A DNA stretch of 38,348 bases, from NCBI GenBank assembly GCA_030631915.1, contig DAOVKF010000002.1:1-38348 (forward strand), in the 5' to 3' direction. The position numbers and the translations under genes were made by a program. Below, piece by piece: positions 3,154-38,210 of the stretch (its first letter is position 1; every line of letters begins with the position of its first letter). The stretch is from Candidatus Omnitrophota bacterium (GTDB taxonomy: Bacteria > Omnitrophota > Gorgyraeia > Tantalellales > Tantalellaceae). The notes under the pieces are model-generated. The model did not search any database, was not told where the DNA came from, and worked only from the letters and a program-made list of their open reading frames with translations.

Positions 3154-3217
3154 TTTTTCAAAAGCCGTTTTTTATGGTATTATTATCTGGAAAGGCGCCG
3201 GCAACGAAAAGGAGATC

Positions 3218-5572: not shown

Positions 5573-5607
5573 TAAATCCGCAGGATCAAGAATGGAGGAG
5601 ACGGCTA

Positions 5608-6795
5608 ATGGGTGATTCAAAAAGACGCAGATTGAATATAGCTTATCTTCACTGGGGGTTCCCGCCCATAATCGGGGGCGTGGAAACGCACCTGACGATA
5701 GTACTGCCCGAGATGGTGAAACAGGGAAATAACGTGAGCCTTCTTACAGGCGCGGTGGAAGGGATACACGGTAAATATGACTATGAGGGCGCGACTATTT
5801 ACAGGACCCCTCTTATGGACCTGAACTGGCTTTTTAAAAGAGGCCTGGCGGGTCTGGCGGAAGATGTCCGCCAGGTTTTTACGTCTTTTCTGGACGTGAC
5901 AAAGGCGGACGTGATACATGCCCATAATATGCATTATTTCAGCGAGGTGCACACGCATACCCTGGAGAGCCTGGCCAAGGCGAGGGGGATACCCTTGATC
6001 CTCACGGCTCATAACGTATGGGACGATGTGCTGTTCCTGGACCTTACGGAGAAAGTGGACTGGACGCATATAATCGCGGTGAGCCACTTCATAAAAAAGG
6101 AGATAATAGGGATAGGCGTCGATGACAGGAAGATCACGGTCATACACCACGGGATAGATCAGGATAAGTTCCACGCGGGGGTGGATCCTTCCAACGTGTT
6201 GAAAAAATACCCGCAGCTCAAGGGCAGAAAGGTCATTTTCCATCCGGCAAGGATAGGCATGGCAAAGGGCTGCGATGTCAGCATAAAGGCGATAAATCTC
6301 GTAAAGAGGATACATCCGGAAGTGATCCTGGTCCTGGCCGGTTCGAAGAACATAGTGGACTGGGGCGAGACACAGCAGAAGGATATAGCTTATTTCGTGA
6401 ACCTTATAAGACGGTTTAAACTGGAAGACAGCGTTTTGATAGATTGTTACACGCTGGATGAGGTCAAGGAACTGTACGCCGTCTCCGATGTGGTCCTGTA
6501 CCCCTCGACCGGGTGTGAGCCTTTTGGCCTTACCATGCTCGAGGCCATGGCGTCGGAAAAACCCATTATAGTCACCAGGATGGGCGGTATGCCGGAGATC
6601 ATCAGCGACGGCATAAACGGATTCGTTATCCCTGTCAAAGATTTTGAGACCCTGGCGTCAAAGATCAATAATCTTCTGGAAGATGAGAAGTTAAGAAAAC
6701 GGTTCGGCTATACGGGCAGACAGATGGTTGAAAAACAGTATACCAAAGAGCACATAGCGCGTAATACCCTTGCTGTCTATGACAGATTCGTGTAG
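5608..6795 (+). CDS. GT4-family (GT-B fold) glycosyltransferase
   Basis: The N-terminus has GGVETH, and the C-terminus has the EX7E region EPFGLTMLEAMASEKPIIVTRMGGMPEII. GGAGGA lies upstream of the ATG. Confidence 0.8.
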   Translation: MGDSKRRRLNIAYLHWGFPPIIGGVETHLTIVLPEMVKQGNNVSLLTGAVEGIHGKYDYEGATIYRTPLMDLNWLFKRGLAGLAEDVRQVFTSFLDVTKADVIHAHNMHYFSEVHTHTLESLAKARGIPLILTAHNVWDDVLFLDLTEKVDWTHIIAVSHFIKKEIIGIGVDDRKITVIHHGIDQDKFHAGVDPSNVLKKYPQLKGRKVIFHPARIGMAKGCDVSIKAINLVKRIHPEVILVLAGSKNIVDWGETQQKDIAYFVNLIRRFKLEDSVLIDCYTLDEVKELYAVSDVVLYPSTGCEPFGLTMLEAMASEKPIIVTRMGGMPEIISDGINGFVIPVKDFETLASKINNLLEDEKLRKRFGYTGRQMVEKQYTKEHIARNTLAVYDRFV

Positions 6796-17854: not shown

Positions 17855-17991
17855 TGCTTATGTCAAGAGTTTTACAAAGATTTTAATGAGTTTTAAATAA
17901 TCATTCCCCAAAGGAATGGGTTAATGAGTAAATGAGTTAATTGGGGTAGATCATGAAACGATTAACAAACGAAATAAAAGAGGAAAGAAAA

Positions 17992-18627
17992 ATGAAAAAG
18001 AGTAATGTTAGTATGTTGAGGAAGATAATTATTGTGCTGGCAGTATCATGCGTGGCGATGATAGGAGCCACCCCCCTGTTCGCCGATATTTTTGGGTATC
18101 AAACACCGGGGTCTAGTGATGATTGGTCAATGTGGGCGCAGATTGGCGGTTCTGTTTTTACTATCCCCGAGGATGGCACAGCCACACAGATGTCTGCTTA
18201 TATAGGAAGCTATTCCGACAATTTAAAAATAAAAACTGCAATTTACAAGCATAGTGATTCAACTTTAGTCGCTGAGTCATTGGAAGAAAATATTAATGCT
18301 ACAGGTACGCATATCTGGCAAGATTTCACCATTTCAGCTTCTTTAACAGCGGATACAGAATATGTTTTAGTTCTTATGAGTGATGGGAACATTCCATTGA
18401 CATATAATGGCGGAGACACAGATCAGGGACATAAACAAGGGCGCAGCTATAGTGATGGATTTCCGGGCACGGCCAGTTTTAACCATAATAATAACAAATA
18501 CTCCATTTACTGCACTTATACACCTGGCGGCGGCGGCGTGCCGGAGGTGCCGGCAGGCGCGATGCCGTTCATGGGCGCGCTTTGCGGATTTGTCTATGTA
18601 ACGATCCGGGGAAGTCGGAGGAAGTAG
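17992..18627 (+). CDS. secreted protein with a PEP-CTERM-like C-terminal sorting tail
   Basis: MKKSNVSMLRKIIIVLAVSCVAMIGATPLFA is a signal peptide, and GAGG lies 10 nt upstream of ATG 17992. The C-terminus is PGGGGVPEVPAGAMPFMGALCGFVYVTIRGSRRK: a Gly linker, a P-E-x-P motif, a TM helix and a basic cluster. The body pattern resembles a beta-sandwich of the DUF4082 type (weak call). Confidence 0.55.
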   Translation: MKKSNVSMLRKIIIVLAVSCVAMIGATPLFADIFGYQTPGSSDDWSMWAQIGGSVFTIPEDGTATQMSAYIGSYSDNLKIKTAIYKHSDSTLVAESLEENINATGTHIWQDFTISASLTADTEYVLVLMSDGNIPLTYNGGDTDQGHKQGRSYSDGFPGTASFNHNNNKYSIYCTYTPGGGGVPEVPAGAMPFMGALCGFVYVTIRGSRRK

Positions 18628-26753: not shown

Positions 26754-27446
26754 ATGAAAGAAATAGCAGCGGCAATAGTGCTTGCGGCCGGATCGGGCAC
26801 GAGGATGAACACGGCGGTCCCAAAGCAGTTCCTGGAATTAGCCGGTAAACCTGTCATTATCCATACCCTTGAAAAATTCGAAAAAAGCAGTTTCATATCA
26901 GATACAGTGGTCGTCTGCCATGAAGACCATATCGAGGACCTTCGCAGGCTTATAAGCAAAAATAAACTCCGGAAGGTGTATAAAGTGGTCCCCGGCGGGG
27001 AGACCCGGCAGGGATCTTCCTTTATCGGCGTGAAAAATTGTCCGCCGGGAACAACATTTGCGCTTATACATGACGCTGTACGGCCGTTTATCAACGATAC
27101 CATCATCAGTGATACATTAGAGGCGGCAGGAGCGGCGGGCGCGGCAGGGACCGTCGTTGACATGATCGATACCGTGATCGTGAAAAATGGCGATTTCATC
27201 AGGGACATGCCGGACAGGAACAACCTTAAAAGAGCGCAGACTCCCCAGGGGTTCCGGTATGAAACAATACTCACAGCCCATGAATGGGCTTTAAAGAACG
27301 ATATTTTTGACTCTACCGATGATTGCGGGCTGGTCCTGGCAATGGGCAGCCCGGTGAAAGCGGTGGAAGGTTCTGTATTCAACATAAAGATCACGGACCG
27401 GGCGGACCTGGCTGTCGCGGAAAGACTGATACTGGAAATCGAATGA
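26754..27446 (+). CDS. IspD/TarI-family cytidylyltransferase (MEP or ribitol-5-phosphate cytidylyltransferase; not resolvable by eye)
   Basis: LAAGSGTRM...PKQFLELAGKPVIIHTLEKF, HDAVRPF, AQTPQGF and VEGSVFNIKIT are present. Confidence 0.85.
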   Translation: MKEIAAAIVLAAGSGTRMNTAVPKQFLELAGKPVIIHTLEKFEKSSFISDTVVVCHEDHIEDLRRLISKNKLRKVYKVVPGGETRQGSSFIGVKNCPPGTTFALIHDAVRPFINDTIISDTLEAAGAAGAAGTVVDMIDTVIVKNGDFIRDMPDRNNLKRAQTPQGFRYETILTAHEWALKNDIFDSTDDCGLVLAMGSPVKAVEGSVFNIKITDRADLAVAERLILEIE

Positions 27447-27480
27447 ATATTCAGCCCTCCCCCGGCGTGGGTCAAAAGAT

Positions 27481-28752
27481 ATGCGCATGATCAGGGCCAT
27501 AATAAACGCTGTCAGGGGGTCAACGGAGAGGAAGGTTCTGGTCGAGAACTTTTTTTCTCTTTCTTTCCTGCAATTAGCCGATTATATCCTGCCGCTGATC
27601 ACGTTGCCCTATCTGGTCAGGGTTTTGGGCCTGGAGAGGTTCGGGCTTATTATTTTCGCGCAGGCGTTCATCCAGTTTTTTGTCATACTCACGGATTTCG
27701 GGTTCAATTTATCCGCGACCAGGGAAATATCGCTGAACAGGGATGACAGGGACAGGGTTTCCGAGATATTCTGTTCCGTCATGCTGGTCAAATCCGCGTT
27801 GATGATGGTCAGTCTGGCGGCGCTCGCCGGTCTGGTTTTCGCGATACCTAAATTCAGGGCCGACTGGCCTGTTTACCTTTTCACCTCCGGGCTGGTCATA
27901 AGCAACGTGCTTTTTCCCGTCTGGTTTTTCCAGGGGATGGAAAAGATGAAATACATCACCCTGATCAATATCCTGGCGAAGCTGATCTTTGTGGCCTGCA
28001 TATTTATCTTTATAAGAAACTCTGCGGATTATATTTATGTCCCGCTGATAAATTCCCTGGGTTTCATCGCCGCGGGAATACTGTCTTTCTGGATCGCGAG
28101 AAAGCATTTCAGGTTCCGGCTATATATGCCCGGCCCGGGCCCCGTGATCTCCATTGCGAGGGAAAGCGTCCATTTCCTGTTGTCGCGTGTTTCCGTTTCC
28201 ATCTATACGACGAGCAGCGTTTTCTTTCTCGGCATGTTCACGAGCAACCTGATGGTCGGGTATTATTCAGCCGCCGAGAAACTCTACCTGGCGGTCCAGA
28301 AGTTATATCACCCGCTTGTGGCCGCCGTATATCCTTTCATGGCCAAGACCCGGGACAGGGTATTCTATAAAAAAATGTTCAAATTAAGCGTTCTGGCCAA
28401 TACGCTGTTCATTGCGCTTTTGTTCGTTTTCAGCAGGCGCGTGATCATCCTCCTGTTCGGAAGCGATTTCAACGAAAGCGTTGCCGTCCTGAGGATATTC
28501 TCAGCGGCGTTATTCGTCGTTGTCCCTTCCATCCTTCTGGGGTATCCTTTTCTGGCCGCTTTGGGCCGTTCCGAATACGCCAATAACAGCGTGATAATCG
28601 GCTCAATATTTCATCTGGCCGTTCTTGTGGCCCTGACCCGGGTCTGCATGAATATTTACACGGTGGCCGCCCTGGTCGTACTGACCGAATCTCTGGTGCT
28701 CTTGATAAGAGTATATGGAATAACCAAATATAAACTATGGAGGGTGAGATGA
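27481..28752 (+). CDS. Wzx-type oligosaccharide flippase (MOP superfamily, Polysacc_synt)
   Basis: The N-terminus NFFSLSFLQLADYILPLITLPYLVRVLGLERFG is typical, and the 423-aa protein has about 12 hydrophobic segments. Confidence 0.75.
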   Translation: MRMIRAIINAVRGSTERKVLVENFFSLSFLQLADYILPLITLPYLVRVLGLERFGLIIFAQAFIQFFVILTDFGFNLSATREISLNRDDRDRVSEIFCSVMLVKSALMMVSLAALAGLVFAIPKFRADWPVYLFTSGLVISNVLFPVWFFQGMEKMKYITLINILAKLIFVACIFIFIRNSADYIYVPLINSLGFIAAGILSFWIARKHFRFRLYMPGPGPVISIARESVHFLLSRVSVSIYTTSSVFFLGMFTSNLMVGYYSAAEKLYLAVQKLYHPLVAAVYPFMAKTRDRVFYKKMFKLSVLANTLFIALLFVFSRRVIILLFGSDFNESVAVLRIFSAALFVVVPSILLGYPFLAALGRSEYANNSVIIGSIFHLAVLVALTRVCMNIYTVAALVVLTESLVLLIRVYGITKYKLWRVR

Positions 28753-29435
28753 AGGTTGTTATTTTAGCGGCAGGCATGGGGACAAGGCTGGCCAGAACGC
28801 TCCCGAAACCGTTGATATCGCTAAAGGACGAAGAAACGATACTGGATTATCAGATAAGGAATATCACGCGGTATGTATCGATCCAGGATATTTACGTGGT
28901 CGTGGGATACAAAAAGGAGCTTTTAATGGAAAAATACCCGGAGCTGCTTTATGTGTATAACAACGGCTATGCCCAGACCAATACCGGGAGGAGCCTGCTG
29001 CTCGCCTTGAGAAAAATAGAGGAAGACACCATATGGCTGAACGGTGATATATTTTTTGAGGACAGGGTCCTCGAAAAACTGATGGGTTCGAGGACCTCGG
29101 CCGTTCTCGTGCAGAAAAAAGAATGCGGCGAAGAAGAAGTCAAGTATACGGTGGACCGGAAGGGATTTGTCAGGGAAATATCCAAGAATGTCAGGAACAG
29201 CCCGGGGGAATCGGTAGGCATCAATCTCATCAAGAAAAAAGATATCCCCGGATTCGTCAGGCACCTTGAAAAGACAGGGCCGCGGGATTATTTTGAGAAA
29301 GCGATGGAGAGGATGATCAGGCTTGATAAAGTAAGGGTCCGGCCCGTGGACATCGGAGATCTGTTTTGTGTCGAGATAGATTTTCCCGAAGATCTTGAAA
29401 GGGTCAGGGATCGTCTGAGATCCAGGGTTTATTAA
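28749..29435 (+). CDS. LicC-like NTP-transferase (phospho-alcohol or sugar-phosphate cytidylyl/nucleotidyltransferase)
   Basis: MKVVILAAGMGTRL...PKPL is present, and the length (about 228 aa) and the C-terminal VEIDFPEDL resemble CTP:phosphocholine cytidylyltransferase-type enzymes. ATG 28749 overlaps the flippase stop (ATGA). Confidence 0.7.
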   Translation: MKVVILAAGMGTRLARTLPKPLISLKDEETILDYQIRNITRYVSIQDIYVVVGYKKELLMEKYPELLYVYNNGYAQTNTGRSLLLALRKIEEDTIWLNGDIFFEDRVLEKLMGSRTSAVLVQKKECGEEEVKYTVDRKGFVREISKNVRNSPGESVGINLIKKKDIPGFVRHLEKTGPRDYFEKAMERMIRLDKVRVRPVDIGDLFCVEIDFPEDLERVRDRLRSRVY

Positions 29436-29445
29436 AGGACGGGGC

Positions 29446-30675
29446 ATGTCTTTTTTTGTAAGGCTGGGAGAAATATGCGTCTGGGTGTTCAAGGACATGG
29501 TGTATCTGGTGTCATGCGTTATCCCCGGGAGCAGGTCCATCTGGGTTTTCGGCGCCTGGTTCGGCGCGAGGTATTCGGATAACAGCAGAAGCCTGTTCGA
29601 GTACGTTAATGAGAATTGTCCGAATATCAGGGCGGTATGGCTGACCGGGAATAACGATGTTTTAAAACTGGTGAGGGACAAAGGATATGAGGTTTGTTTC
29701 GCGAACAGCCTGAAAGGGATATGGCTGTCACTAAGGGCGGGGATAGGCGTGATCTGCACCGGCAATAATGACATTAACGGGTTTACCACCGGAAGGCAGA
29801 GAATTATCAATCTGGAGCACGGCATTCCCCTGAAAAAGATAGTGTATGACGACCGTATCAGCTATAAAGGGCATTCAAACCTTAAGCTTTTCCTCCTGCC
29901 TTTTCTCAGGAAAAAACCGAGGCTTGTCAGCGCGACGTCTTTGCGGGTCAAGAACACGGTGTCGGGAGCTTTGAGAGTTCCGGACAGTAACGTGGTAATA
30001 ACCGGGTATCCGAGGAACGACGTTTTTTTTGCCCAAAAAAGAGAGAAGACGCCGCTTGAGGCCGGGCTGCTGCTGAGGGACAGAAAGGATCGCAGACTGG
30101 GCATATACATGCCCACCCATCGAAGGGAGGGCAGGCTGGACGTTCTTTCCCTGTTTTTCGGGGAGATGGACAGTATAAACTCGAGATTGCGGGAGCAGCG
30201 CGTTATCCTGCTGGTAAAAGTCCATTATTATCACCTGGAGGAGATGCAGAAGAACCCTTCAGAGTATTCAAACATTTATTTCATACAGGATAAGGATGTC
30301 GAGCAGGACATATACAGCCTTTTGCCGGCGGTCGATTTTCTGGTCACGGATTATTCCAGCGTATACTTTGATTATCTGCTGCTGGACAGGCCGATCATTT
30401 TCGCGCCGTTTGACATGGAAGAATATCTGAGAGACGATAGAGAGCTCTATTATGGGTATAACGACGTTACTCCGGGCCCGAAGGCCGGTAACTGGGACGA
30501 GGTCTTGAAATACATCGGGGAAAGCCTCTCTTTTCCCGAAAGGTACGCGCGGGAAAGAGACAGGGTCAGAGAAATGTTTCACACGTACTGCGACGGGCAC
30601 AGCAGCGAAAGAGTGTATAAGGAGATCCTCGGTATATTACAGGCCAAACCGTTGGGAGCGGCCCGAAAAAGATGA
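29446..30675 (+). CDS. CDP-glycerol/CDP-ribitol phosphotransferase family protein (TagF/TarF/TarL-like, Glyphos_transf)
   Basis: LEHGIPLKK (catalytic His context), ITGYPRND, YMPTHR and LVTDYSSVYFDYLLLDRPIIF are present. Confidence 0.85.
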   Translation: MSFFVRLGEICVWVFKDMVYLVSCVIPGSRSIWVFGAWFGARYSDNSRSLFEYVNENCPNIRAVWLTGNNDVLKLVRDKGYEVCFANSLKGIWLSLRAGIGVICTGNNDINGFTTGRQRIINLEHGIPLKKIVYDDRISYKGHSNLKLFLLPFLRKKPRLVSATSLRVKNTVSGALRVPDSNVVITGYPRNDVFFAQKREKTPLEAGLLLRDRKDRRLGIYMPTHRREGRLDVLSLFFGEMDSINSRLREQRVILLVKVHYYHLEEMQKNPSEYSNIYFIQDKDVEQDIYSLLPAVDFLVTDYSSVYFDYLLLDRPIIFAPFDMEEYLRDDRELYYGYNDVTPGPKAGNWDEVLKYIGESLSFPERYARERDRVREMFHTYCDGHSSERVYKEILGILQAKPLGAARKR

Positions 30676-31592
30676 AAAAAGTCGTTGTTATCATAGTCAA
30701 CTGGAACAGATGCGCGGATACGGTCGAGTGCCTGGAATCGCTGAACAGGATATCCTATCCGGACTATGGTGTGGTCATCGTTGACAACGGTTCGGAAGAC
30801 GGTTCCGAACAGCTGTTCCGGGAAAAGTACCCGGAACATGCCGTGATCCAGAGCGGGTCCAACCTGGGTTTTGCCGGCGGCGTGAACGTCGGGATCAGGC
30901 GCGCGAGGGAGGAGAACGCGGATCTTGTCCTGATCCTGAACAATGATACCGAGGTCAGCCGGGATTTTCTTGATGAACTGGTCAGGACAGCCGAGTCTGA
31001 ACAGGGGATCGGGATAGTCGGCGGGAAGATATACCGTCTGGACGACAGAAAAAGGTTATGGTCCTGCGGAGGGTCTTTTGACGTCAATACCGGAAGGGCC
31101 AGGCACTTTGTGTCCGGAGAAGACTGCCGGCACACCGCCGGAAAGCCGGAATTTTTGTATATCCAGGGTTGTCTGATGCTGATAAAAAAGGAATGCGTGG
31201 ATGATATCGGGTTGTTTTCCGAAAGGTTCTTTCACCTCGGGGAGGATGTAGAATACTGTATCCGCGCGCAAAAAAAAGGATGGCGGCTGGCTTTCGCTCC
31301 GAAAAGCGTTATCTATCACAGGGCTTCGGCTTCACTGCGGTCTTTCAGCCCGGTTTATAATTATTATGAACAGAGGAACCGGTTAAGCATCGTAAAAGAA
31401 TATCATGATTACGGGAACCCGTTTGAAATGATCATGAGCGTGGCCGTGAACGTGATGAGGGTCCTGTATGCCGTTTTTTTCAGAACGAGCAGAAAAGATT
31501 TCATGTCAAATATCAGCTGGATATTCCGCGGTGTCCGGGATTTTACGCGTGATAATTTCGGAAAGGCCCCCGAGAAAACGGTATCGCAATGA
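30672..31592 (+). CDS. GT2-family glycosyltransferase
   Basis: VVIIVNWNRCADTVECLESL, VIVDNGSEDGS, GFAGGVNVG and LILNNDTEV are present. The ATG overlaps the TagF-like stop (ATGA). Confidence 0.8.
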   Translation: MKKVVVIIVNWNRCADTVECLESLNRISYPDYGVVIVDNGSEDGSEQLFREKYPEHAVIQSGSNLGFAGGVNVGIRRAREENADLVLILNNDTEVSRDFLDELVRTAESEQGIGIVGGKIYRLDDRKRLWSCGGSFDVNTGRARHFVSGEDCRHTAGKPEFLYIQGCLMLIKKECVDDIGLFSERFFHLGEDVEYCIRAQKKGWRLAFAPKSVIYHRASASLRSFSPVYNYYEQRNRLSIVKEYHDYGNPFEMIMSVAVNVMRVLYAVFFRTSRKDFMSNISWIFRGVRDFTRDNFGKAPEKTVSQ

Positions 31593-32806
31593 AAATATTA
31601 CTGATCACGCCGTATCTTCCGCATTCCAGGGTCACCCATGCCGGCGGGAAATTCATATATGACCTTATTGCCCGGCTTAAGGAACGCGGCTTTCAGGTCT
31701 CTCTTATTTCCTTTTTCGAGCCGGGCGAGAGCAGGTATCTGGACAGCGTGAAGCCGTTGTGCGAGGCGTCCGTTTTCCTGGCAAGGGCAATGGTGTTCCC
31801 CAAAACACTTGTCGAGTATTTTCTGGAACGGCCCTTTCTGTGCGCGATAAAGCTGTTTCTTTTTTTCTTTGAGAGCATGGTGCAGAAGATCAGGCTGACG
31901 CGCTCCATGGATAAAATGACCCGGGAGACCGATTTTGACGTGCTTCAGGTCGAATACAGCATAATGGGCCTTATCATGAAAAAGATAAAATTCAACGGCC
32001 TTAAGGTCCTGGACCTCCAGGATCTCAAGGTCAAGCCCGCTGTCAGGGAGTTATCGTCCGAGAAGAACGCGGTTTTAAGGTCCCTGAGGGGCCTGAAAGT
32101 GAGGGCCGTTGAAAAAATGGAGATATCCTTTTGCGGGAAGTTTGACTGCCTTATGGTCAAATCCGAATTCGACAGGAAGATACTGAACGGGTTCGGGGAT
32201 TTTGATATAAAGGTCGCGCCTCTGGGGGTCGTTGTTCCGGAAACGCGTATCCAGGCCGGGGAGAGAGAGGAGAACAGCGTTCTGTTCGTAGGGGCGATGT
32301 TCAGGGACTTTAACGAGAACGCCGTGCTGTATTTTGTCAATGAGGTCATGCCGCGTCTGAATAAAGGATCGAAAGACGTGAAATTTTATATCGTGGGGGA
32401 CAGGCCCTCGGACAGGGTGCTCGGTCTGTCCTCAGGTAGTGTTACGGTTACCGGATATGTCGAAGACCTCGCCCGGTTTTATAACAGGTGCAGGGTGTTC
32501 GTGGCTCCGCTGTTCATCGGAGGCGGGCAGATCTTTAAGGTCCTGGAAGCCATGAGTTTCGGTGTCCCGGTTGTCGCGACGTCCGTAGCCAATGAAGGCA
32601 TACTGGCCGAAGACGGCAGGGAAATACTGATCGCTGACACGCCCGGGGAGTTCTGCGAAAAGATAACCGGTCTGCTGGAAAATGGACCGCTGTGGGATGA
32701 GATATCAAGACAGGCCAGGGTGTTCGTTGAAAAAACATATTCCTGGGACAGGGTGATCGACCGGTACATGGAAGTATATAAGAAGCCGCGGGAGCGAACC
32801 GTCTAG
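31589..32806 (+). CDS. GT4-family glycosyltransferase
   Basis: The C-terminus has GGGQIFKVLEAMSFGVPVVATSVANEGI. The ATG overlaps the GT2 stop (ATGA). Confidence 0.8.
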   Translation: MKILLITPYLPHSRVTHAGGKFIYDLIARLKERGFQVSLISFFEPGESRYLDSVKPLCEASVFLARAMVFPKTLVEYFLERPFLCAIKLFLFFFESMVQKIRLTRSMDKMTRETDFDVLQVEYSIMGLIMKKIKFNGLKVLDLQDLKVKPAVRELSSEKNAVLRSLRGLKVRAVEKMEISFCGKFDCLMVKSEFDRKILNGFGDFDIKVAPLGVVVPETRIQAGEREENSVLFVGAMFRDFNENAVLYFVNEVMPRLNKGSKDVKFYIVGDRPSDRVLGLSSGSVTVTGYVEDLARFYNRCRVFVAPLFIGGGQIFKVLEAMSFGVPVVATSVANEGILAEDGREILIADTPGEFCEKITGLLENGPLWDEISRQARVFVEKTYSWDRVIDRYMEVYKKPRERTV

Positions 32807-34386
32807 AACGGTTTCATGATAAGCGCGCCGTTGTGAAATACCGTTTCCAGCGCCATGGGAACGCTCCAGAAAGCAGATACCGCGAGCGCGGCAACGAGCA
32901 GTATCGTGCCTGTCCATGGCCCTGCCTTGCTGTTCAGGAATATTCTCAGGCGGTTCGCCACGTAAGCGCCGAGTATGGCAAAAGCCGGGTAAGCCGGAAG
33001 CATGTAGCGGTGTTCTCCCCCCATCAGTTTGTAAGCTACGCAGAACGCCGCCGCGAGCCATATGACCGGGAACAGGGTGTTCTTAAATTGCTTTTTATCC
33101 AGCCAGAGCCATAGAGGGGACAGGTAAGCCAGGATGAAAAGCGGGTTCTGATAGGGTATGCCGAGGAGGTACAGGTGTTTTGGCCGGCCCTGGACCAGCC
33201 TGAACCACGCTGTTTCAGCCGCTTCGATAAGGTTTTCCTGATGGGGCCTGTAGATAGGGTCTCCGTAGGTCAGGGTTATCTTGATAAACCAGTATCCCGC
33301 GCTCAGGATACACCCGGTTCCGAACAGCATAAGGTTTTTGTCGAACACCACTTTTAGAAAAGTCTCTTTCCGGAAAAGCCTGTCCGCGTTCGACAAAAAA
33401 TGCCAGATCACTATGGCGAAAGCCCCGATAGCCGCGTTCTGTTTGGTAACGACGCCCATACCGCAGGCTATGCCGCCGGCAAAGGCAAAAAAAGGCGCCT
33501 GTTTTTTCACGGCCACAAGGTACAGAAGGACTGCCGCTACCATCAGCGCGGCGGTCATGTCATCGGCCCATATCTTTTGCGACGTGAGTATGTCGATCGG
33601 GGAGATCGCCATCAGGAACATGGCTACGGGCGGGATCCATTCGTCGTTATAAAGGGTCCTGGCCGTCAGATACACGAGAACGATCAGGAGCATGCTGGAC
33701 GCGAGCGGTATTATTATCGAATAGAACTGTTTGCCGGCGATCGCCGGGTCAAAACGGAAATTCCTCAGACCCACACCCGGCGGGGCTTTCCTGATTATCG
33801 CGGTGTCGTTGACCGCGAGCATGTAATACGGCTGGCCCGCGGCGAATATTTTGTGTGACAACATGATCGCCAGCGGGAAGCCGAAAGGCATGTGGTGCAG
33901 GGGTTCGTCGTAATAAGTGATGCCCCCCTCAGCGAGGCTTTTTATTATCCGGCCTTTATCCCGCGCCGGAGCCATCTGCACGACTTCCGGGTGTTCGCGC
34001 AGGGAGTACATGTCAATGCCTCTCAGGTTGTAGCCGGAGATGCCGCTGGTATCCAGTTTGAACGCCAGGCCGACATAGTGGTGCTGATCGCCGCGGTAAT
34101 GCGGGAGGTCAAAGGTGTGTTTTCTGAGGCCGAACGCCAGTAAAAGTATCGCAACGAAAACAGCCCATCCGGCCGCTGTTTTCAGTTTTTTAAATGGAAG
34201 TTTATCCAGCGGGATAATGGATAAAGCTCTTTTCCCGGAGTTTTTAAGCTCGGCGCTGTCACGGTATTTCTGGACCGTATGACGCGGTATCCCCAGTTTT
34301 CTGGATATCTCTTTGTTGGACATGGAGCCCAGGTGCTCGATTATGAATTCCTTTTCCTGACTGCTGAGATGGCGCTGTTCTTTCAT
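32803..34386 (-). CDS. fusion protein: N-terminal helix-turn-helix domain plus a multi-pass GT-C-like (ArnT/PMT_2-like) membrane glycosyltransferase
   Basis: Residues 1 to about 70 are soluble and carry SNKEISRKLGIPRHTVQKYR. About 11-13 hydrophobic segments follow, with a long first loop containing YYDEPLHH. The ATG overlaps the upstream GT4 stop (ATGA). The GT-C assignment rests on the overall pattern only. Confidence 0.55.
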   Translation of the reverse strand: MKEQRHLSSQEKEFIIEHLGSMSNKEISRKLGIPRHTVQKYRDSAELKNSGKRALSIIPLDKLPFKKLKTAAGWAVFVAILLLAFGLRKHTFDLPHYRGDQHHYVGLAFKLDTSGISGYNLRGIDMYSLREHPEVVQMAPARDKGRIIKSLAEGGITYYDEPLHHMPFGFPLAIMLSHKIFAAGQPYYMLAVNDTAIIRKAPPGVGLRNFRFDPAIAGKQFYSIIIPLASSMLLIVLVYLTARTLYNDEWIPPVAMFLMAISPIDILTSQKIWADDMTAALMVAAVLLYLVAVKKQAPFFAFAGGIACGMGVVTKQNAAIGAFAIVIWHFLSNADRLFRKETFLKVVFDKNLMLFGTGCILSAGYWFIKITLTYGDPIYRPHQENLIEAAETAWFRLVQGRPKHLYLLGIPYQNPLFILAYLSPLWLWLDKKQFKNTLFPVIWLAAAFCVAYKLMGGEHRYMLPAYPAFAILGAYVANRLRIFLNSKAGPWTGTILLVAALAVSAFWSVPMALETVFHNGALIMKPF

Positions 34387-35543
34387 GCGTCCGCCCCTGT
34401 CGTATCCTTAAAGAGCTTAACGTATCTCCGCGACACGGCGGATATGCTGTAGCGCGCCGCGGCGCTTCTGTTGTTTTCGCTGATCTCCCTCCTGCGGCGG
34501 TCGTCCATCGCCAGATCCAGGATGGCTTCCGCCAGTTTCGTCTCATCGCGCGGCGGGACCAGTATCCCGTTCCTGTCCGGCGCGATGATATCGGTCTGCC
34601 CGCCTTGGTCCGTCGCGACGACAGGGAGGCCGCAGGACATGGCTTCAAGAAGCACGATCCCGAATCCCTCGTGCAGGGAAGACAGCACGTACATGTCCGC
34701 AGCGGCGAGGTACTGGAATTTTTTCTCCTCAGAGACCGAAGACAGGAACGTCACCCGGTCCTTGAGCCCGGTTCTTATTGAGAGTTCGTTCAGAGCGTCC
34801 CGCTCGGGGCCGTCCCCGATAAGTATGAGTTCAAGGTTTTGCGCGCGTTCCCGCGCCACGGCAAGGGATATTATGAGATGATCGTATCCTTTCCGTTTTA
34901 TCAGCCTGCCGATGGATATAATATAGAACGAGCCCTTGCGCATGGAAAGCTTTTCGCGGTCCACGGGGGTGAAGACAGGGGCGGGGATCCCCAGCGGGAT
35001 GACGGCGATGTCCTTTGACGGTTTGTAGAACCTTCCGGCGTTGTCCCTGGTGTTTTGTGACTGCGCCACGACCGCTGAAGCGCTGTTCAGAACGGTCCGG
35101 ACCGCCAGGCGGAGGAGCGCGTGACGGTGCGGCGACGTTTTTTTACTGGGGTCGTAGATGTCGCCTCCGTGTACGCTCAGCACGTCGGGTATGTTGAAAA
35201 CGCGGGAAAGGACCAGCCCCACGGGCCCGGTGGGCACGGCGAAATGGGTATTGATAACATGATATTTTTTATTCGCGCACAAACGGATGCCTTTCATGAC
35301 GGCGGAAAAAAGGAACGTCAGCATGGAAGACATGGTCGCCGTATGCAGTGAAGTCCTGTTCAGGACCGGGACGCGGTAGATGTTCACGCCGTTCTTGACC
35401 TCTTTTTTTTCCAGGCCCCTGAAATGCGTCGTCAGAACGTCAACATTATGGTCCCCGGCCAGTTCGTTCGCCAGATCCCGCGTAAAGACGCCTCCTCCGC
35501 CCCCAAGAGGCGGGTATTCATAGTTGATCATCAGGATATTCAT
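34383..35543 (-). CDS. GT4-family glycosyltransferase
   Basis: The N-terminus has YEYPPLGGGGGVF and the C-terminus has EGFGIVLLEAMSCGLPVVATDQGGQTDII. Confidence 0.8.
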   Translation of the reverse strand: MNILMINYEYPPLGGGGGVFTRDLANELAGDHNVDVLTTHFRGLEKKEVKNGVNIYRVPVLNRTSLHTATMSSMLTFLFSAVMKGIRLCANKKYHVINTHFAVPTGPVGLVLSRVFNIPDVLSVHGGDIYDPSKKTSPHRHALLRLAVRTVLNSASAVVAQSQNTRDNAGRFYKPSKDIAVIPLGIPAPVFTPVDREKLSMRKGSFYIISIGRLIKRKGYDHLIISLAVARERAQNLELILIGDGPERDALNELSIRTGLKDRVTFLSSVSEEKKFQYLAAADMYVLSSLHEGFGIVLLEAMSCGLPVVATDQGGQTDIIAPDRNGILVPPRDETKLAEAILDLAMDDRRRREISENNRSAAARYSISAVSRRYVKLFKDTTGADA

Positions 35544-36478
35544 TACAGGATATCTCTTATGTGGTATATCGTCTTATTCTGGGATTCGTAATAGGTGCGG
35601 ATATTTATCTCTCCGAGGAAACCCATGGAGATCAGCTGCACGCTCACAAGAAAGAAAAGCACACAGAGTATCAGCAGGGGGTTTCCGCTCATGTCCGTGT
35701 GCTTTACGAGTTTCATGTAAACGACGAGCAGAAAACTGAGGAACCCCAGACTTCCGCTGATGATCCCCATGCCCCCGAAGAACCGTATGGGTTTTGTGCT
35801 GTACTCGGAAAGGAACGCGATAAGCAGAAGGTCGAGCAGCACTTTTATCGTGCGGTTCAACCCGTATCCGGTCTTGCCGTATTGCCGCGGCCTGTGGTTT
35901 ACCTCGAGCTCGGTTATCCTGGCGCCTTTCCAGCAGGCGATAGCCGGGATAAAGCGGTGCATTTCGCCGTAAAGCCGCAGGTTCTTTATGACGTCGCGTT
36001 TATAAGCCTTTAACGTGCAGCCGTAGTCGTGCAGCGGGACCTTCAGTGTGACCGATATAAGCCAGTTGGCCAGTCTTGAAGGAACGACCCTCCGCAGGAA
36101 GGCGTCTTTCCGCTTTCTGCGCCATCCGCTGACAAGATCAAAGCCGGAATCAAGTTTTTCTATGAGCGCAGGGATGTCACGCGGGTCATTCTGCATGTCC
36201 CCGTCCATTGTGATGACGATATCCCCCCCGGCCATGTCGAATCCGGCCATGATAGCGGGTGTCTGCCCAAAATTCCTGTTAAGGTCGATTATTTTCAGGT
36301 GCGGGGCTGATTGTTTTATTCCGGTAAGCTCCTGCAGCGTGTTATCCGTACTGCCGTCATTGATAAAAATGACTTCATAGGATCTGCCGTATTTACCCAG
36401 GACCTCACTGATCTCATCACAGAGAGGGCGGATATTCTTTTCCTCGTTATAGACCGGTATTATGACGCTTATTTCCAT
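35543..36478 (-). CDS. polyprenyl-phosphate glycosyltransferase (GtrB/ArnC/DPM1-like GT2 with a C-terminal TM pair)
   Basis: ISVIIPVYNEEKNI, VIFINDGSTDNT and VITMDGDMQNDP are present, with two C-terminal TM helices and ...GEINIRTYYES. The start is set to ATG 36478, which follows GGAAGG. The stop overlaps the GT4 ATG by 1 nt (TAATG). Confidence 0.85.
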   Translation of the reverse strand: MEISVIIPVYNEEKNIRPLCDEISEVLGKYGRSYEVIFINDGSTDNTLQELTGIKQSAPHLKIIDLNRNFGQTPAIMAGFDMAGGDIVITMDGDMQNDPRDIPALIEKLDSGFDLVSGWRRKRKDAFLRRVVPSRLANWLISVTLKVPLHDYGCTLKAYKRDVIKNLRLYGEMHRFIPAIACWKGARITELEVNHRPRQYGKTGYGLNRTIKVLLDLLLIAFLSEYSTKPIRFFGGMGIISGSLGFLSFLLVVYMKLVKHTDMSGNPLLILCVLFFLVSVQLISMGFLGEINIRTYYESQNKTIYHIRDIL

Positions 36479-36595
36479 AAAATGCCTTCCCGGGTTCAAT
36501 ACGGATAAAGCGTAGCATATGTTAACCAAAAAAGCAAGATAGCCCGAAACGTCATTCCTGCGCAAGCAGGGACCCATAAAAGGATCCCTTTTGAT

Positions 36596-36624
36596 TTGTT
36601 AAGTCAGGGTCCCCGATATATAAT
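36596..36624 (+). promoter_or_regulatory. candidate promoter for the divergent GT2 gene; it implies a near-leaderless mRNA
   Basis: TTGTTA (36596-36601), a 17-nt spacer, then a perfect TATAAT (36619-36624). ATG 36635 lies only 10 nt past the -10, and there is no SD. Confidence 0.4.
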
Positions 36625-36634
36625 ATATTATAAG

Positions 36635-37684
36635 ATGAAGGAAAAAGTCACTGTCTGTGTGATCACGTTTAACAGCGTCAAATATCTGTCCGCTCTGCTG
36701 GACAGTATCCGGGATTCGACATTCAGGGAATTCCGCCTGTTATTCATAGATAACGGCTCCACGGACGGCACAATGGATTATCTTGAAAAAGACCGGTCAG
36801 AAAAAGAGGTCATCAGCCTGCCCGAAAATACAGGCCACAGCCACGCCGCCAATTTAGCGTTAAAAAAATGCAGGACCCGGTATCTGATATTGCTGGACCA
36901 CGATACGATCGTTGACAGGGACTTGTTCAGGGGTCTTTATCTGGAAGCAGGGCGGGAACAGAACACCGATTTCGCGGTCTTCGCGCCGAAGATCATAGAC
37001 AGGGCAAGGGACGAGGTCTATTACGGCGGAGAGTTCCATTATATCGGAAAGACACATACCAATCGTGAAAGACCGGAGGGCGCGGAAGTGGGCATGATCG
37101 GATCCACCGCTCCGCTCCTGGACCTGAGCAGGATCCCTCCGGATCTGGCCTTTGACGACGATTTTTTCATATACTGGAACGACGCCGATTTTTTTTACAG
37201 GTTAAGGGCGGCCGGGAAGAAGATAAAACTGGTCCCGGAAGCTCTCGTTTATCACCTGGGCGGCACAGAGGATTATTCTCACCGCCGCGGGGTGAAATAC
37301 AGCCCGATAAGGGCGTTCTATGTTATGCGGAACCACAGGTTATTTGTGATCAAGAACTATAGTCCGGCGAGCATATTGATCTTCCTCCCCTGTTTTTTGT
37401 TGTATGAATTGTTCAATCTCATGTTCTGTATAAGAAAACGGGTTTTCATAAAAGGCTACTTGCGTTCCGTGGCCGGCACGGCCGGACTGTTCTTTTCAAC
37501 GATGATGAAAAGGTCCGCCTTCCAGAAGACGAGAAAGATCGGGGAAAAGGACCTGGTGGGATGGTACAGGCTGGATTACAACCCCGGAGTGGTGAGCACG
37601 GACCTTGAAGATCTTCTTGTGAGGATCTTTGACCGGGTATTGAGGACATATTATCTTCTGGTAAAAGCCATTTTCTGGAGGTGA
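36635..37684 (+). CDS. GT2-family glycosyltransferase
   Basis: VTVCVITFNSVKYLSALLDSI, FIDNGSTDGT and LDHDTIV are present, and the C-terminal part is hydrophobic. Confidence 0.8.
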   Translation: MKEKVTVCVITFNSVKYLSALLDSIRDSTFREFRLLFIDNGSTDGTMDYLEKDRSEKEVISLPENTGHSHAANLALKKCRTRYLILLDHDTIVDRDLFRGLYLEAGREQNTDFAVFAPKIIDRARDEVYYGGEFHYIGKTHTNRERPEGAEVGMIGSTAPLLDLSRIPPDLAFDDDFFIYWNDADFFYRLRAAGKKIKLVPEALVYHLGGTEDYSHRRGVKYSPIRAFYVMRNHRLFVIKNYSPASILIFLPCFLLYELFNLMFCIRKRVFIKGYLRSVAGTAGLFFSTMMKRSAFQKTRKIGEKDLVGWYRLDYNPGVVSTDLEDLLVRIFDRVLRTYYLLVKAIFWR

Positions 37685-37829: not shown

Positions 37830-38210
37830 ATGGCTAAAGAGCACCGGATATTGATAGTGGATGACAATAAGGATTTCGCTGATGTTTTTTGCGACATCTT
37901 GAAAGCGAATGACTATATGGTGGAAAGCTGTTACGGCGGGGCTGAGGCCATAGAGAAAATGAAAAAAGGCGCTTTCAACATAATGTTCCTGGATATCAGG
38001 ATGCCGGAGATAGACGGCATCCAGACCTTAAAGGAAGTAATGAGAATACAGCCGGACACCACCGTTATAATGATGACGGGATATTCCGTAGATGAACTTG
38101 TCCATAAAGCCCTTGAAGAAAGGGCGTCCGACATAATATACAAACCTTTCGAGATCGATAAAGTATTAAGCCTGATACAGGGCAGTCGACTCCCCGGAAC
38201 CGCCGGATAA
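37830..38210 (+). CDS. single-domain CheY-like response regulator receiver
   Basis: ILIVDDN, the phospho-acceptor context FLDIRMPEIDG, VIMMTGY and the conserved Lys in YKPF are present. At 126 aa there is no output domain. Confidence 0.9.
   Translation: MAKEHRILIVDDNKDFADVFCDILKANDYMVESCYGGAEAIEKMKKGAFNIMFLDIRMPEIDGIQTLKEVMRIQPDTTVIMMTGYSVDELVHKALEERASDIIYKPFEIDKVLSLIQGSRLPGTAG

Follow-up and report, generated by a model that had tools for sequence, protein, structure and literature searches.

The Wzx-dependent layout with a glycerol-phosphate side group has been documented in pneumococcal capsules (PMC1391919) and, together with Gtr-type side-chain glucosylation, in the O-antigen of Hafnia alvei (PMC4869667); further precedent has also been published (PMC7685785). 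The PF04464 family includes the TagF/TarL polymerases, the TagB/TarF primases and the Gram-negative capsule transition transferase CpsA. Characterised members use CDP-glycerol or CDP-ribitol as donors, and some of them add a single glycerol-3-phosphate (PMC11666461). Cytidylyltransferases of the COG1213 type, such as LicC, PntC, IPCT, Cj1416 and CpgD, act on phosphosugars, phosphocholine, phosphoglutamine and, for CpgD, phosphoglycerate, and glycerol-3-phosphate is not among the substrates described (PMC12275187). The pneumococcal (type IV) teichoic acid system includes TarIJ, LicABC, LicD and the flippase TacF.

The locus analyzed here lies in a stretch of 38,348 nucleotides, referred to as the window. 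Like the pneumococcal capsule and Hafnia clusters, it unites Wzx, several GT2 and GT4 enzymes, a dedicated cytidylyltransferase and one putative glycerol-phosphate transferase in one variable cluster, and it shares with the Hafnia O-antigen the additional decoration route through GtrB and GT-C enzymes. It differs from them in that the cytidylyltransferase is of the LicC fold and not of the TagD type, Wzy and the priming transferase are absent from the cluster, and the ArnC-like/GT-C pair sits within the locus, and its host is uncultured and Omnitrophota-like. The initial annotation regarded the locus as unlike a canonical WTA, LTA or capsule layout; it corresponds instead to the general layout of Wzx-dependent heteropolysaccharide loci that add a glycerol-phosphate side group (PMC1391919, PMC4869667). 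We favor, at a probability of about 0.6, the reading that the genes are one version of a Wzx-dependent surface-glycan locus that varies between strains, encoding an O-antigen- or exopolysaccharide-type glycan of an Omnitrophota-like diderm, with g3 and g4 supplying glycerol phosphate. The locus is of an ordinary kind, neither a wall or pneumococcal teichoic acid locus nor a new type of teichoic acid.

Gene content and organization

Ten ORFs were present in the ORF list (Table 1), and the Pfam profile run agreed with the domains previously assigned to them. Nine of them can be retained as envelope genes, while g1 is most likely a housekeeping flank gene. The start/stop overlaps at 28749, 30672, 31589, 34383-34386 and 35543 are all real. 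The ATG of g3 overlaps the stop codon of g2 as ATGA, with GGAGG upstream, and the CTAG palindrome at 32803-32806 serves as stop codon of both convergent genes g6 and g7. The hydropathy profile of g2 displays about 10-12 hydrophobic segments. Assignment of g6 to TIGR03087 was rejected, the score of 150 bits being below the cut-off of 317. Translation of g9 and g10 probably begins at downstream ATGs, M34 (36478) and M14 (36635), respectively. The Glycos_transf_2 match of g10 begins at residue 19 of the TTG-called protein, and the best promoter-like site nearby (36596-36624) overlaps the called TTG start.

Table 1. Genes of the glycan locus and its right flank, with coordinates in the window.
Gene	Coordinates	Strand	Length	Predicted product	Profile match
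g1	26754-27446	+	230 aa	IspD-family cytidylyltransferase	Pfam IspD 5e-52
g2	27481-28752	+	423 aa	Wzx/MOP-family flippase	Pfam Polysacc_synt 5e-64
g3	28749-29435	+	228 aa	LicC/PntC/IPCT-fold (COG1213-type) cytidylyltransferase	NTP_transf_3 1e-12
g4	29446-30675	+	409 aa	TagF-family CDP-alcohol phosphotransferase	Glyphos_transf 2.5e-61
g5	30672-31592	+	306 aa	GT2	Glyco_tranf_2_3 3e-25, Glycos_transf_2 3.5e-20
g6	31589-32806	+	405 aa	GT4	Glyco_trans_1_4 1.3e-28
g7	32803-34386	-	527 aa	GT-C membrane glycosyltransferase, PMT_2/ArnT-like	PMT_2 2.5e-9, PMT 1.9e-7
g8	34383-35543	-	386 aa	GT4	Glycos_transf_1 7e-44
g9	35543-36577	-	344 aa as called	ArnC/GtrB-like polyprenyl-phosphate glycosyltransferase	Pfam GT2
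g10	36596-37684	+	362 aa as called (TTG)	GT2, divergent from g9	Glycos_transf_2 2e-21
Response-regulator gene	37830-38210	+		Right flank	Response_reg 1.4e-27

A Pfam scan of the main ORFs (120 aa or longer) across the window gave no hit to a TarJ-type reductase, LicA/B/D, a priming phosphoglycosyltransferase, Wzy, Wzz or an ABC exporter, in agreement with the reported absences, and the 1.8 kb of the source contig outside the window has none of these functions either. The 40-kb contig thus offers no candidate for the priming transferase, for Wzy, for a ligase or for a small flippase of polyprenyl-phosphate sugars, and the pathway is not closed from the contig.

Conserved flanks and exchange of gene content

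The best named matches and the syntenic contigs come from Candidatus Omnitrophota. The host is not a Firmicute, in agreement with the earlier suggestion that this is not a classical Firmicute wall. The left flank is ordered H+-PPase, histidine kinase, TPM, LemA and ispD. On the right, the response-regulator gene is 70% identical to the gene at the same position in two related contigs (L002 and L004). In both of these and in the source contig, genes for a protein of 242-267 aa and then PNP_UDP_1 come next. Between these conserved flanks gene content has been exchanged. Where the window has g3 and g4, two relatives (L007 and L008) carry genes of pyruvylation after wzx, PS_pyruv_trans together with an FrhB-like gene. 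In L171 a sulfotransferase follows wzx and a methyltransferase lies immediately ahead of it, and in L009 a methyltransferase follows. L170 has a ManNAc-type sugar pathway ahead of wzx, and its contig ends inside that gene.

The flank gene g1 and the comparison with teichoic acid loci

In each of five related Omnitrophota contigs (L007, L008, L009, L170 and L171) an orthologue of g1 (55-65% identity) sits at this same position, next to a cluster of different content. Over the portion read, none of these clusters shows a gene of the TagF-like, LicD-like or LicC-like kind. In a neighbor-joining tree g1 falls beside IspD proteins and IspDF fusions, apart from the TarI-like genes of glycan loci. 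No reductase adjoins it. Most likely g1 is the housekeeping IspD of the MEP pathway and not TarI, and it bounds the variable locus on the left as a conserved flank gene. It also passes the NCBIfam ispD model TIGR00453 (207 bits against a cut-off of 181). The TarI role in making CDP-ribitol previously suggested for it is thus not upheld.

A teichoic-acid-style locus was the alternative at stake. Here g1 would give CDP-ribitol and g3 would activate another phospho-alcohol, for instance phosphocholine, while g4 would build or prime an alditol-phosphate chain for export by the MOP flippase, on the model of pneumococcal teichoic acid. The four best solved-structure matches of g1 are indeed TarI proteins, and with the model for the ribitol-5-phosphate cytidylyltransferase subfamily g1 scores barely above the cut-off (172.8 against 166). 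In addition, NCBI places the orthologues of g3 in a phosphocholine cytidylyltransferase family, and some marine loci pair IspD-like and LicC-like genes side by side. However, those marine loci possess two CDP-alcohol transferases (TagF-like and LicD), whereas the window has two cytidylyltransferases for one such transferase. The TarI-like genes found next to TagF-like genes in three loci (L037, L060 and L081) are each followed by a reductase, and LicA, LicB, LicD and TagGH were not found by Pfam in the window or the rest of the contig. The cargo of Wzx flippases consists of short lipid-linked units, which also speaks against this model, as does the catalytic-domain-only size of g4 (409 aa). 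Taken with the tree and synteny of g1, these points make a teichoic-acid-style locus improbable.

The pneumococcal analogy drawn in the initial annotation is likewise not supported: IspD-fold, LicC-fold and MOP flippase genes do lie close together, but TarJ, LicA, LicB and LicD are missing and the IspD-fold gene behaves as a housekeeping flank gene. Moreover, the phospho-alcohol transferases of the pneumococcal system belong to the LicD family and are not known to include TagF-family enzymes.

A two-gene module for probable CDP-activated phospho-alcohol transfer

The pair g3-g4 is also adjacent in Omnitrophota relatives (66% and 55% identity, respectively) and is a conserved two-gene module. 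The CDP-alcohol transfer function proposed for it is supported, and the catalytic residues are intact. The motifs EHGIPLKK (residues 124-131), GYPRND (187-192) and YMPTHR (221-226) quoted earlier for g4 are all present, and alignment to residues 356-707 of S. epidermidis TagF shows conservation of His125 (TagF H444) and His260 (TagF H584). The GT-B domain of the TagF family is retained in g4 with its two catalytic histidines, the TDYSS motif and the PTHR/PTWR motif, and in size g4 resembles TagB, TarF and CpsA, which make one or a few additions. It differs in consisting of the catalytic domain only, lacking an N-terminal membrane-targeting or TPR domain, in having EHG in place of the WHG motif, and in belonging to a Wzx locus and not to a TagO/A/B plus TagGH or KpsMT/CS system. 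Its scores are far below the NCBIfam equivalog cut-offs, the best match being TarF (125 bits against 550). We infer that g4 would add a single glycerol phosphate to a lipid-linked repeat unit, without polymerisation.

The AlphaFold model of g3 (pLDDT 94) resembles PntC (TM 0.85-0.87), LicC (0.80) and IPCT, with an overall range of 0.79-0.87, and the structure search does not tell substrates apart. The protein shares with COG1213 enzymes the fold, the LAAGxGxR...PK nucleotide-binding loop and gene coupling to a transferase of CDP-activated donors. It differs in its partner, which is TagF-like and not LicD, and in its distance from characterised members (only 21-24% identity), homology to LicC at the sequence level being limited to residues 2-128. 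Its closer relatives, an Omnitrophota protein (66-67%) and a D. crinifex protein (48%), both adjoin TagF-like genes. The order in D. crinifex is PGT, Wzx, cytidylyltransferase, GpsA-type glycerol-3-phosphate dehydrogenase, TagF-like gene (50%), GT2 and GT4. A GpsA-like gene separates the two module genes in eight loci, from Desulfurobacterium, Methanobacteriota (L010), Fibrobacter (L059) and several metagenomes (L005, L010, L059, L106, L113, L139, L141 and L147, of which L106, L113, L139, L141 and L147 are metagenome loci). All three genes lie within 3 kb in Sulfurimonadaceae L015, and in Polaribacter L018 a TagD-like gene takes the cytidylyltransferase slot ahead of the GpsA-like and TagF-like genes. 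Because a GpsA-type gene separates the module genes in other taxa, glycerol phosphate is the most likely head group and CDP-glycerol its donor, with g3 the predicted CTP:glycerol-3-phosphate cytidylyltransferase. The head group, formerly held to be beyond prediction, can thus be proposed from gene association.

Within 6 kb of TagF-like relatives, a TagD-like gene was found in 30/80 genome loci, a LicC-fold cytidylyltransferase of the g3 type in 19/80 and an IspD/TarI-like gene in only 3/80. Downstream neighbors of g3-family genes are CDP-alcohol users or GpsA-like genes in 34 of the 51 evaluable cases (16 Glyphos_transf, 7 LicD, 4 CDP-OH_P_transf and 7 GpsA-like). Some members at similar identity adjoin LicD, CDP-alcohol phosphatidyltransferase or inositol-phosphate synthase, and public sources name the family phosphocholine cytidylyltransferase, choline kinase or L-glutamine-phosphate cytidylyltransferase. 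With partners so mixed, specificity is not readable from family membership alone.

The same architecture could accordingly serve a different phospho-compound, activated by g3 and transferred by g4, with glycerol-2-phosphate, glycerol-1-phosphate, phosphoglycerate, inositol phosphate, 2-aminoethylphosphonate and phosphocholine as candidates. Besides the mixed partners, this is consistent with the similarly low identity of g3 to PntC, LicC and IPCT (~22-24%), with the absence of a GpsA-like gene from the window, and with the phosphocholine, phosphoglutamine, inositol-1-phosphate and phosphoglycerate known as substrates of COG1213-type enzymes (PMC12275187). We consider it unlikely, as the loci with the TagF-like enzymes most similar to g4 (L005, L010, L113 and L147; 338-405 bits) have the interposed GpsA-type gene, a TagD-like gene holds the same slot in Polaribacter, and the donors of characterised PF04464 enzymes are CDP-glycerol or CDP-ribitol (PMC11666461).

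The minus-strand unit

The products of g9, g8 and g7 are 73%, 56% and 59% identical to their orthologues in L171, and g7, the last gene of this conserved unit, is 57% identical to its counterparts in L007 and L008, whereas the plus-strand genes are not conserved. The best NCBIfam match of g9 is ArnC NF007986 (218 bits against a cut-off of 529), with 176 bits to PgfS, and two hydrophobic helices form its C-terminus. At E<=1e-3 the GT-C family of g7 numbers 371 representatives and is thus a small one. The N-terminus of g7 contains an HTH-like segment of about 50 aa (34237-34386), also found in a subset of the family (P0365, P0368, P0369, P0372, P0374 and P0485).

This conservation, the ArnC match and the GT-C subfamily with its cytoplasmic HTH-like N-terminus could point to two systems: a variable repeat-unit cassette, g2-g6 with or without g10, and an independent modification system, g9-g8-g7, whose target, as with ArnC/ArnT or in protein O-mannosylation, would be lipid A or core, a protein or a different glycan. 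We regard such a division as possible yet less probable than a single surface-glycan locus, since in all relatives examined the two units lie side by side at this locus in convergent orientation and Gtr-type decoration of Wzx-dependent O-antigens is already known (PMC4869667). It is also compatible with the surface-glycan reading and not exclusive of it.

Proposed pathway

In the surface-glycan reading, g3 would make CDP-glycerol, drawing on CTP and on the sn-glycerol-3-phosphate of central metabolism. A polyprenyl-diphosphate-linked oligosaccharide would be begun by a priming phosphoglycosyltransferase encoded elsewhere and extended by the cytoplasmic GT2/GT4 enzymes g5, g6, g10 and perhaps g8. 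One glycerol phosphate would then be moved by g4 from CDP-glycerol to a sugar hydroxyl of the lipid-linked unit, with His125 as putative base and His260 contacting the pyrophosphate, and g2 would flip the unit to the periplasmic face. In the minus-strand unit, g9 would make a polyprenyl-phosphate sugar, used periplasmically by g7 to glycosylate the same glycan or another envelope acceptor. As the housekeeping IspD, g1 would stand outside the glycan system. The acceptors and the order of these steps are conjectural, and each of the two convergent units may have an acceptor of its own. The newest aspect of the locus is a probable route to CDP-glycerol that does not use TagD.

Organization of the locus and its surroundings

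The ten tightly packed genes that the initial annotation placed between 26754 and 37684 were borne out by the ORF list and by the junction sequences, in which the reported start/stop overlaps are present as 4-base overlaps. Searches of the ten genes with Pfam and NCBIfam reproduced all of its domain calls, namely IspD, Wzx (Polysacc_synt), NTP_transf_3, Glyphos_transf, two GT2, two GT4, one ArnC-like GT2 and one PMT_2 GT-C domain.

Coordinates, from the ORF list, and assignments of the ten genes of the glycan locus
Gene	Position	Strand	Assignment	Arrangement
g1	26754-27446	+	IspD family	
g2	27481-28752	+	Wzx/MOP flippase	
g3	28749-29435	+	LicC-fold cytidylyltransferase	
g4	29446-30675	+	TagF-family transferase	
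g5	30672-31592	+	GT2	
g6	31589-32806	+	GT4	
g7	32803-34386	-	GT-C (PMT_2)	third in the g9-g8-g7 run, convergent to g1-g6
g8	34383-35543	-	GT4	second in the g9-g8-g7 run
g9	35543-36577	-	ArnC/GtrB-like polyprenyl-phosphate glycosyltransferase	first in the g9-g8-g7 run
g10	36596-37684		GT2	divergent from g9

The convergent genes g6 and g7 take both of their stop codons from one CTAG palindrome (32803-32806), which leaves zero intergenic room for terminators. Between the divergent genes g9 and g10 the called starts (36577 and a TTG at 36596) leave just 18 bp. The domain matches start at residue 34 in g9 and at residue 17-19 in g10, and the top promoter-like site (36596-36624) overlaps the called start of g10. 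The true starts are likely at 36478 for g9 and 36635 for g10, and some 156 bp would then be available for divergent control. Scanning 26-38 kb for promoters and terminators gave a signal not above the shuffled expectation.

Within the window, Pfam scans covered the main ORFs with a length of 120 aa or more, and the gene list also covered the 40,173-bp source contig (ENA ERZ23498525 scaffold_576). Both show that the locus is surrounded mostly by central-metabolism and other housekeeping genes. Among these ORFs and in the contig gene list there was no priming phosphoglycosyltransferase, no Wzy or Wzz, no ABC exporter, no LicA/B/D and no TarJ-type reductase, in agreement with the earlier report of a window devoid of TarJ, LicA/B/D, a priming transferase, Wzy, a chain-length regulator and TagGH. 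The closest named relatives belong to Candidatus Omnitrophota, with g4 sharing 56% identity, g1 up to 69% and g3 66%, and the syntenic contigs derive from Omnitrophota assemblies. The host lineage is diderm and not Firmicute, and the earlier remark that this is not a classical Firmicute wall agrees with these relatives.

Two further features of the window were recorded. A 224-aa protein (17953-18627, +) has a signal peptide and the C-terminus VPEVPAGAMPFMGALCGFVYVTIRGSRRK. By eye this C-terminus resembles a sorting signal, as the earlier label "PEP-CTERM-like" implied, but the label gained no support from the models, with no Pfam or NCBIfam match at E<=0.01. At 3068-6795 (+) a gene for a GT4 glycosyltransferase (395 aa) comes after one for a GH65 glycoside phosphorylase (834 aa); the two probably serve a disaccharide or compatible-solute function of their own that has no link with the glycan locus.

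Conserved flanks and exchanged genes

Five relatives (L007, L008, L009, L170 and L171) share the left flank of the locus, composed of Pribosyltran (73-81% identity), H+-PPase (76-79%) and an SBP_bac_3 histidine kinase (about 51%). TPM and LemA are additionally present in L170 and L171, and the IspD orthologue then follows. The right flank is kept in L002 and L004, with a response regulator (70%), a protein of 242-267 aa (41%) and PNP_UDP_1 (47%). The plus-strand genes after ispD differ from one relative to another. They are Wzx, g3 and g4 in the window; Wzx, PS_pyruv_trans and an FrhB-like gene in L007 and L008; a methyltransferase, Wzx and a sulfotransferase in L171; PMT, Wzx and a methyltransferase in L009; and an oxidoreductase/acetyltransferase, UDP-GlcNAc 2-epimerase and Wzx in L170. 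We read these differences, from gene content, as a putative swapping of genes for non-carbohydrate substituents within a hypervariable glycan locus, where the interchangeable sets may be those for glycerol phosphate, pyruvate and sulfate/methyl.

The minus-strand unit g9-g8-g7 is kept between the flanks, with identities of 73%, 56% and 59% in L171, and g7 is 57% identical in L007 and L008. The g9 product is a GT2 protein with two C-terminal hydrophobic helices and g7 is a PMT_2 GT-C protein, with scores under the equivalog cut-offs. No small flippase gene (GtrA or ArnE/F) for a GtrB/ArnC plus GT-C route was seen. Ahead of its membrane domain, g7 carries an N-terminal HTH-like segment of about 50 aa (34237-34386, -; SSQEKEFIIEHLGSMSNKEISRKLGIPRHTVQKY; Sigma70_r4_2 E=7e-4). 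Most of the 371 members of the g7 family are without it. It is shared with six listed homologues (P0365, P0368, P0369, P0372, P0374 and P0485) and is thus not a start-codon artefact.

The IspD-family gene g1

The initial annotation took g1 for TarI, a source of CDP-ribitol. The protein does score marginally above the cut-off of the ribitol-5-phosphate cytidylyltransferase subfamily model NF001183 (172.8 against 166), and it also passes the ispD model TIGR00453 (207.4 bits, cut-off 181.3). Against solved structures, TarI proteins (114-128 bits) and B. subtilis IspD (114) are about equal. Since this similarity does not separate TarI from IspD, we relied on synteny and on the tree. The g1 homologues form a smooth gradient within Omnitrophota (48-69% identity), beyond which come IspD and IspD-IspF fusions of other phyla. 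In a neighbour-joining tree, constructed without bootstrap, g1 falls in an Omnitrophota clade adjoining IspD/IspDF and apart from those IspD-like genes of other loci that neighbour a TagF-like or LicC-like gene. The position of the IspD orthologue is kept in the five relatives sharing the left flank (55-65% identity), and no TagF-like, LicD-like or LicC-like gene follows it in the stretch read of any of them. By the identity gradient, the kept position and the tree, the apparent conservation of g1 is vertical and context-independent within the lineage.

Reductase genes bear on the same question. Three loci (L037, L060 and L081) have an IspD/TarI-like gene beside a TagF-like gene with a reductase directly after, SDR-type in two and Zn-ADH (TarJ-type) in one. 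No reductase adjoins g1 or was found elsewhere on the contig by the Pfam scans and the source-contig gene list. A four-gene module of marine metagenomes combines a distant Glyphos_transf, an IspD-like gene, a g3-like cytidylyltransferase and a LicD-like gene (L126:1198-4767, L133:4227-7767, L137:449-4017; in L120:4091-7760 the IspD-like gene is first). With two cytidylyltransferases and two CDP-alcohol transferases it has the look of a true system for two head groups, unlike the window, which has g4 alone. The ispD model, the tree, the kept position and the absence of a reductase thus all stand against TarI, and g1 is most likely a housekeeping IspD. This corrects a plausible misreading, as an ispD gene bordering a glycan cluster gives no evidence of CDP-ribitol.

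The TagF-family transferase g4

The g4 protein matches PF04464 with 208 bits (cut-off 22.1) over residues 30-395, the whole catalytic domain, and its alignment with S. epidermidis TagF spans residues 356-707 of the latter. The motifs read in it earlier are present. Whether the TagF-like protein might lack catalytic residues had also been raised; in the alignment both catalytic histidines are in place, His125 (LEHGIPLKK) at TagF H444 and His260 (VKVHYYH) at H584. Among 30 g4 homologues H260 never varies and H125 is kept in at least 90%; g4 reads EHG at the position where most homologues have WHG. With 409 aa the protein consists of the catalytic domain only, and the N-terminal domains of TagF are absent. 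Among PF04464 enzymes, the addition of just one glycerol-3-phosphate to an acceptor sugar is documented in Gram-negative capsule priming (CpsA, PMC11666461).

The closest TagF-like homologue of g4, P0002 of Omnitrophota (L002:2312-3520, 56% identity), has LWYG instead of WHG, which puts Tyr at the position of the catalytic-base histidine. The capsule transition transferase Cps7A is reported to have a Tyr there as well (PMC11666461).

The cytidylyltransferase g3 and its association with g4

The g3 protein has the P-loop LAAGMGTRL...PK and a confidently predicted structure (pLDDT 94). Fold searches with this model retrieved PntC (TM 0.85-0.87), LicC (1JYK, 0.80) and inositol-1-phosphate cytidylyltransferases (0.72-0.79), all of them cytidylyltransferases for small phospho-alcohols or phosphonates, with just 21-24% identity to g3. 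The sequence match to LicC is confined to residues 2-128, and the fold prediction and search give the fold without separating substrates. A TagD-type enzyme (HxGH / RTEGISTT fold, COG0615) was ruled out because g3 has the LicC/GlmU-N fold; judged from the model, g3 can only be a functional analogue of TagD. LicA, LicB and LicD, the choline-pathway partners, were not found in the scans, and the partner of g3 is a TagF-like enzyme. Public names in the g3 family (P0247-P0364) clash, including phosphocholine cytidylyltransferase family, choline kinase, L-glutamine-phosphate cytidylyltransferase and GlmU; among the members with a name are Patescibacteria, Dojkabacteria, Woesearchaeota, WS2 and Phycisphaerales.

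The adjacent g3-g4 pair is kept in the Omnitrophota relatives L002-L004 (66% and 55% identity). Desulfurobacterium crinifex has a g3 orthologue that is 48% identical along its whole length; it is preceded by Bac_transf and then Wzx, and followed in turn by an NAD(P)H-dependent glycerol-3-phosphate dehydrogenase, a TagF-like gene (50%), GT2 and GT4. Runs of cytidylyltransferase, GpsA-like and TagF-like genes are also found in Methanobacteriota (L010), Fibrobacter (L059) and five metagenome loci (L106, L113, L139, L141 and L147), and the three genes lie within 3 kb in Sulfurimonadaceae (L015). All four loci with the TagF-like proteins scoring highest against g4 (L005, L010, L113 and L147) contain the dehydrogenase gene. 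A TagD-like gene precedes the GpsA-like and TagF-like genes of Polaribacter (L018) in the same arrangement, and the LicC-fold enzyme therefore sits in the slot of TagD.

A single-sequence scan of genome contigs found no g4 relatives, and the scan was repeated with an alignment. Within 6 kb of the TagF-like relatives at 80 genome loci, a TagD-like gene was found in 30, a LicC-fold cytidylyltransferase in 19 and an IspD/TarI-like gene in three. Starting from g3, 80 metagenome loci gave 51 evaluable downstream neighbours: Glyphos_transf (16), GpsA-like (7), LicD (7), CDP-alcohol phosphatidyltransferases (4), inositol-phosphate synthases (2) and a mixed rest, including ABC transporter, Stealth and methyltransferase genes. 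By these counts the family goes mainly with CDP-alcohol chemistry, and its specificity is not uniform. Since the partners are mixed and family membership alone leaves the specificity of g3 unfixed, the argument rests on the TagF-/GpsA-linked sub-group. For this sub-group the neighbouring GpsA-like genes point, by association, to sn-glycerol-3-phosphate as the substrate, although the initial annotation had held that the head group could not be predicted.

The characterised glycerol-phosphate cytidylyltransferases TagD, TarD, Cps3B/Cps7B and AQ1368 are TagD-type, and AQ185 belongs to the FAD synthetase family (PMC8262930, PMC12275187). We give a probability of about one half to the reading that the g3 family provides a widespread non-TagD route to CDP-glycerol feeding TagF-family glycerol-phosphate transferases, and forms with them an interchangeable set at the Omnitrophota glycan locus. 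Its hosts may be diderm bacteria, candidate-phyla lineages and archaea, and the family could be the source of the archaeal glycerol-phosphate cytidylyltransferase activity whose gene is not yet assigned (PMC8262930).

Comparison with known glycopolymer loci

The domain content and gene layout of the initial annotation stand; its interpretation is supported only in part. The scanned window ORFs (120 aa or longer) and the 40-kb contig showed neither the wall teichoic acid set (TagGH-type ABC exporter, TagO/TagA/TagB, TagD or TarIJ) nor any Glycos_transf_4/Bac_transf, TagA-type or TagD-type gene, and the wall teichoic acid polymerase has extra N-terminal domains that the catalytic-domain-only g4 does not. 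The logic of pneumococcal teichoic acid (TarIJ, LicABC, LicD and TacF) had also been invoked, but what the window has in common with it is limited to a generic MOP flippase and two nucleotidyltransferase folds, with TarJ, LicA, LicB and LicD undetected in the same scans.

A group-2 capsule (Kps) reading was considered because in one Omnitrophota relative (L003:2594-7145) the cytidylyltransferase/TagF-like pair lies downstream of KdsA, KpsF-like, weak Capsule_synth (KpsC/S-like) and HAD-like proteins; the module may thus also serve a Kdo-linked, group-2-capsule-like setting. The window is without KdsA, KpsF and Capsule_synth and has Wzx instead, and this reading was rejected for it. The soluble protein encoded upstream of the cytidylyltransferase in L002 and L003 (471 aa and 403 aa, no Pfam match) was rejected as a candidate Wzy, having no transmembrane segments.

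The locus was said to match no canonical layout. However, its Wzx flippase, several glycosyltransferases, dedicated cytidylyltransferase and single glycerol-phosphate transferase are arranged as in the pneumococcal capsule loci with glycerol phosphate, which have gct or gtp1-3 plus wchX (PMC1391919), and as in the O-antigen locus of Hafnia alvei PCM1220, which has tagD plus whcT and whose product receives additional glucose by way of a Gtr system (PMC4869667). In E. coli, TarI and ribitol genes likewise occur in O-antigen clusters, and O130 contains glycerol phosphate (PMC7685785). A Wzx flippase and several glycosyltransferases, with variable content between conserved flanks, characterize the window as they do Wzx/Wzy-dependent O-antigen/EPS loci. 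Like wecA in E. coli, the genes for the Wzy polymerase, the chain-length regulator and the initiating phosphoglycosyltransferase may lie at another site in the genome. In D. crinifex a Bac_transf gene adjoins wzx.

The product of the strain-variable locus is most likely a Wzx-flipped oligosaccharide unit with a glycerol-phosphate substituent. The conserved polyprenyl-phosphate-sugar/GT-C system would further glycosylate, or accompany, this unit, and the genes for initiation, polymerisation and ligation would be located elsewhere.

Implications

Current concepts of glycopolymer assembly are unchanged by this locus. Modestly novel are the probable non-TagD source of CDP-glycerol, the proposed swapping of substituent genes at one fixed Omnitrophota locus and the GT-C enzyme with an N-terminal HTH-like segment. 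A testable function is offered for the large and inconsistently annotated g3 family, which appears to replace TagD beside TagF-like enzymes in many uncultured lineages. The phylum Omnitrophota is thought to include small-celled, host-associated organisms. Omnitrophota-like bacteria would vary their surface glycan by swapping genes for non-sugar substituents at one conserved locus, and such variation bears on phage and host recognition in these bacteria.
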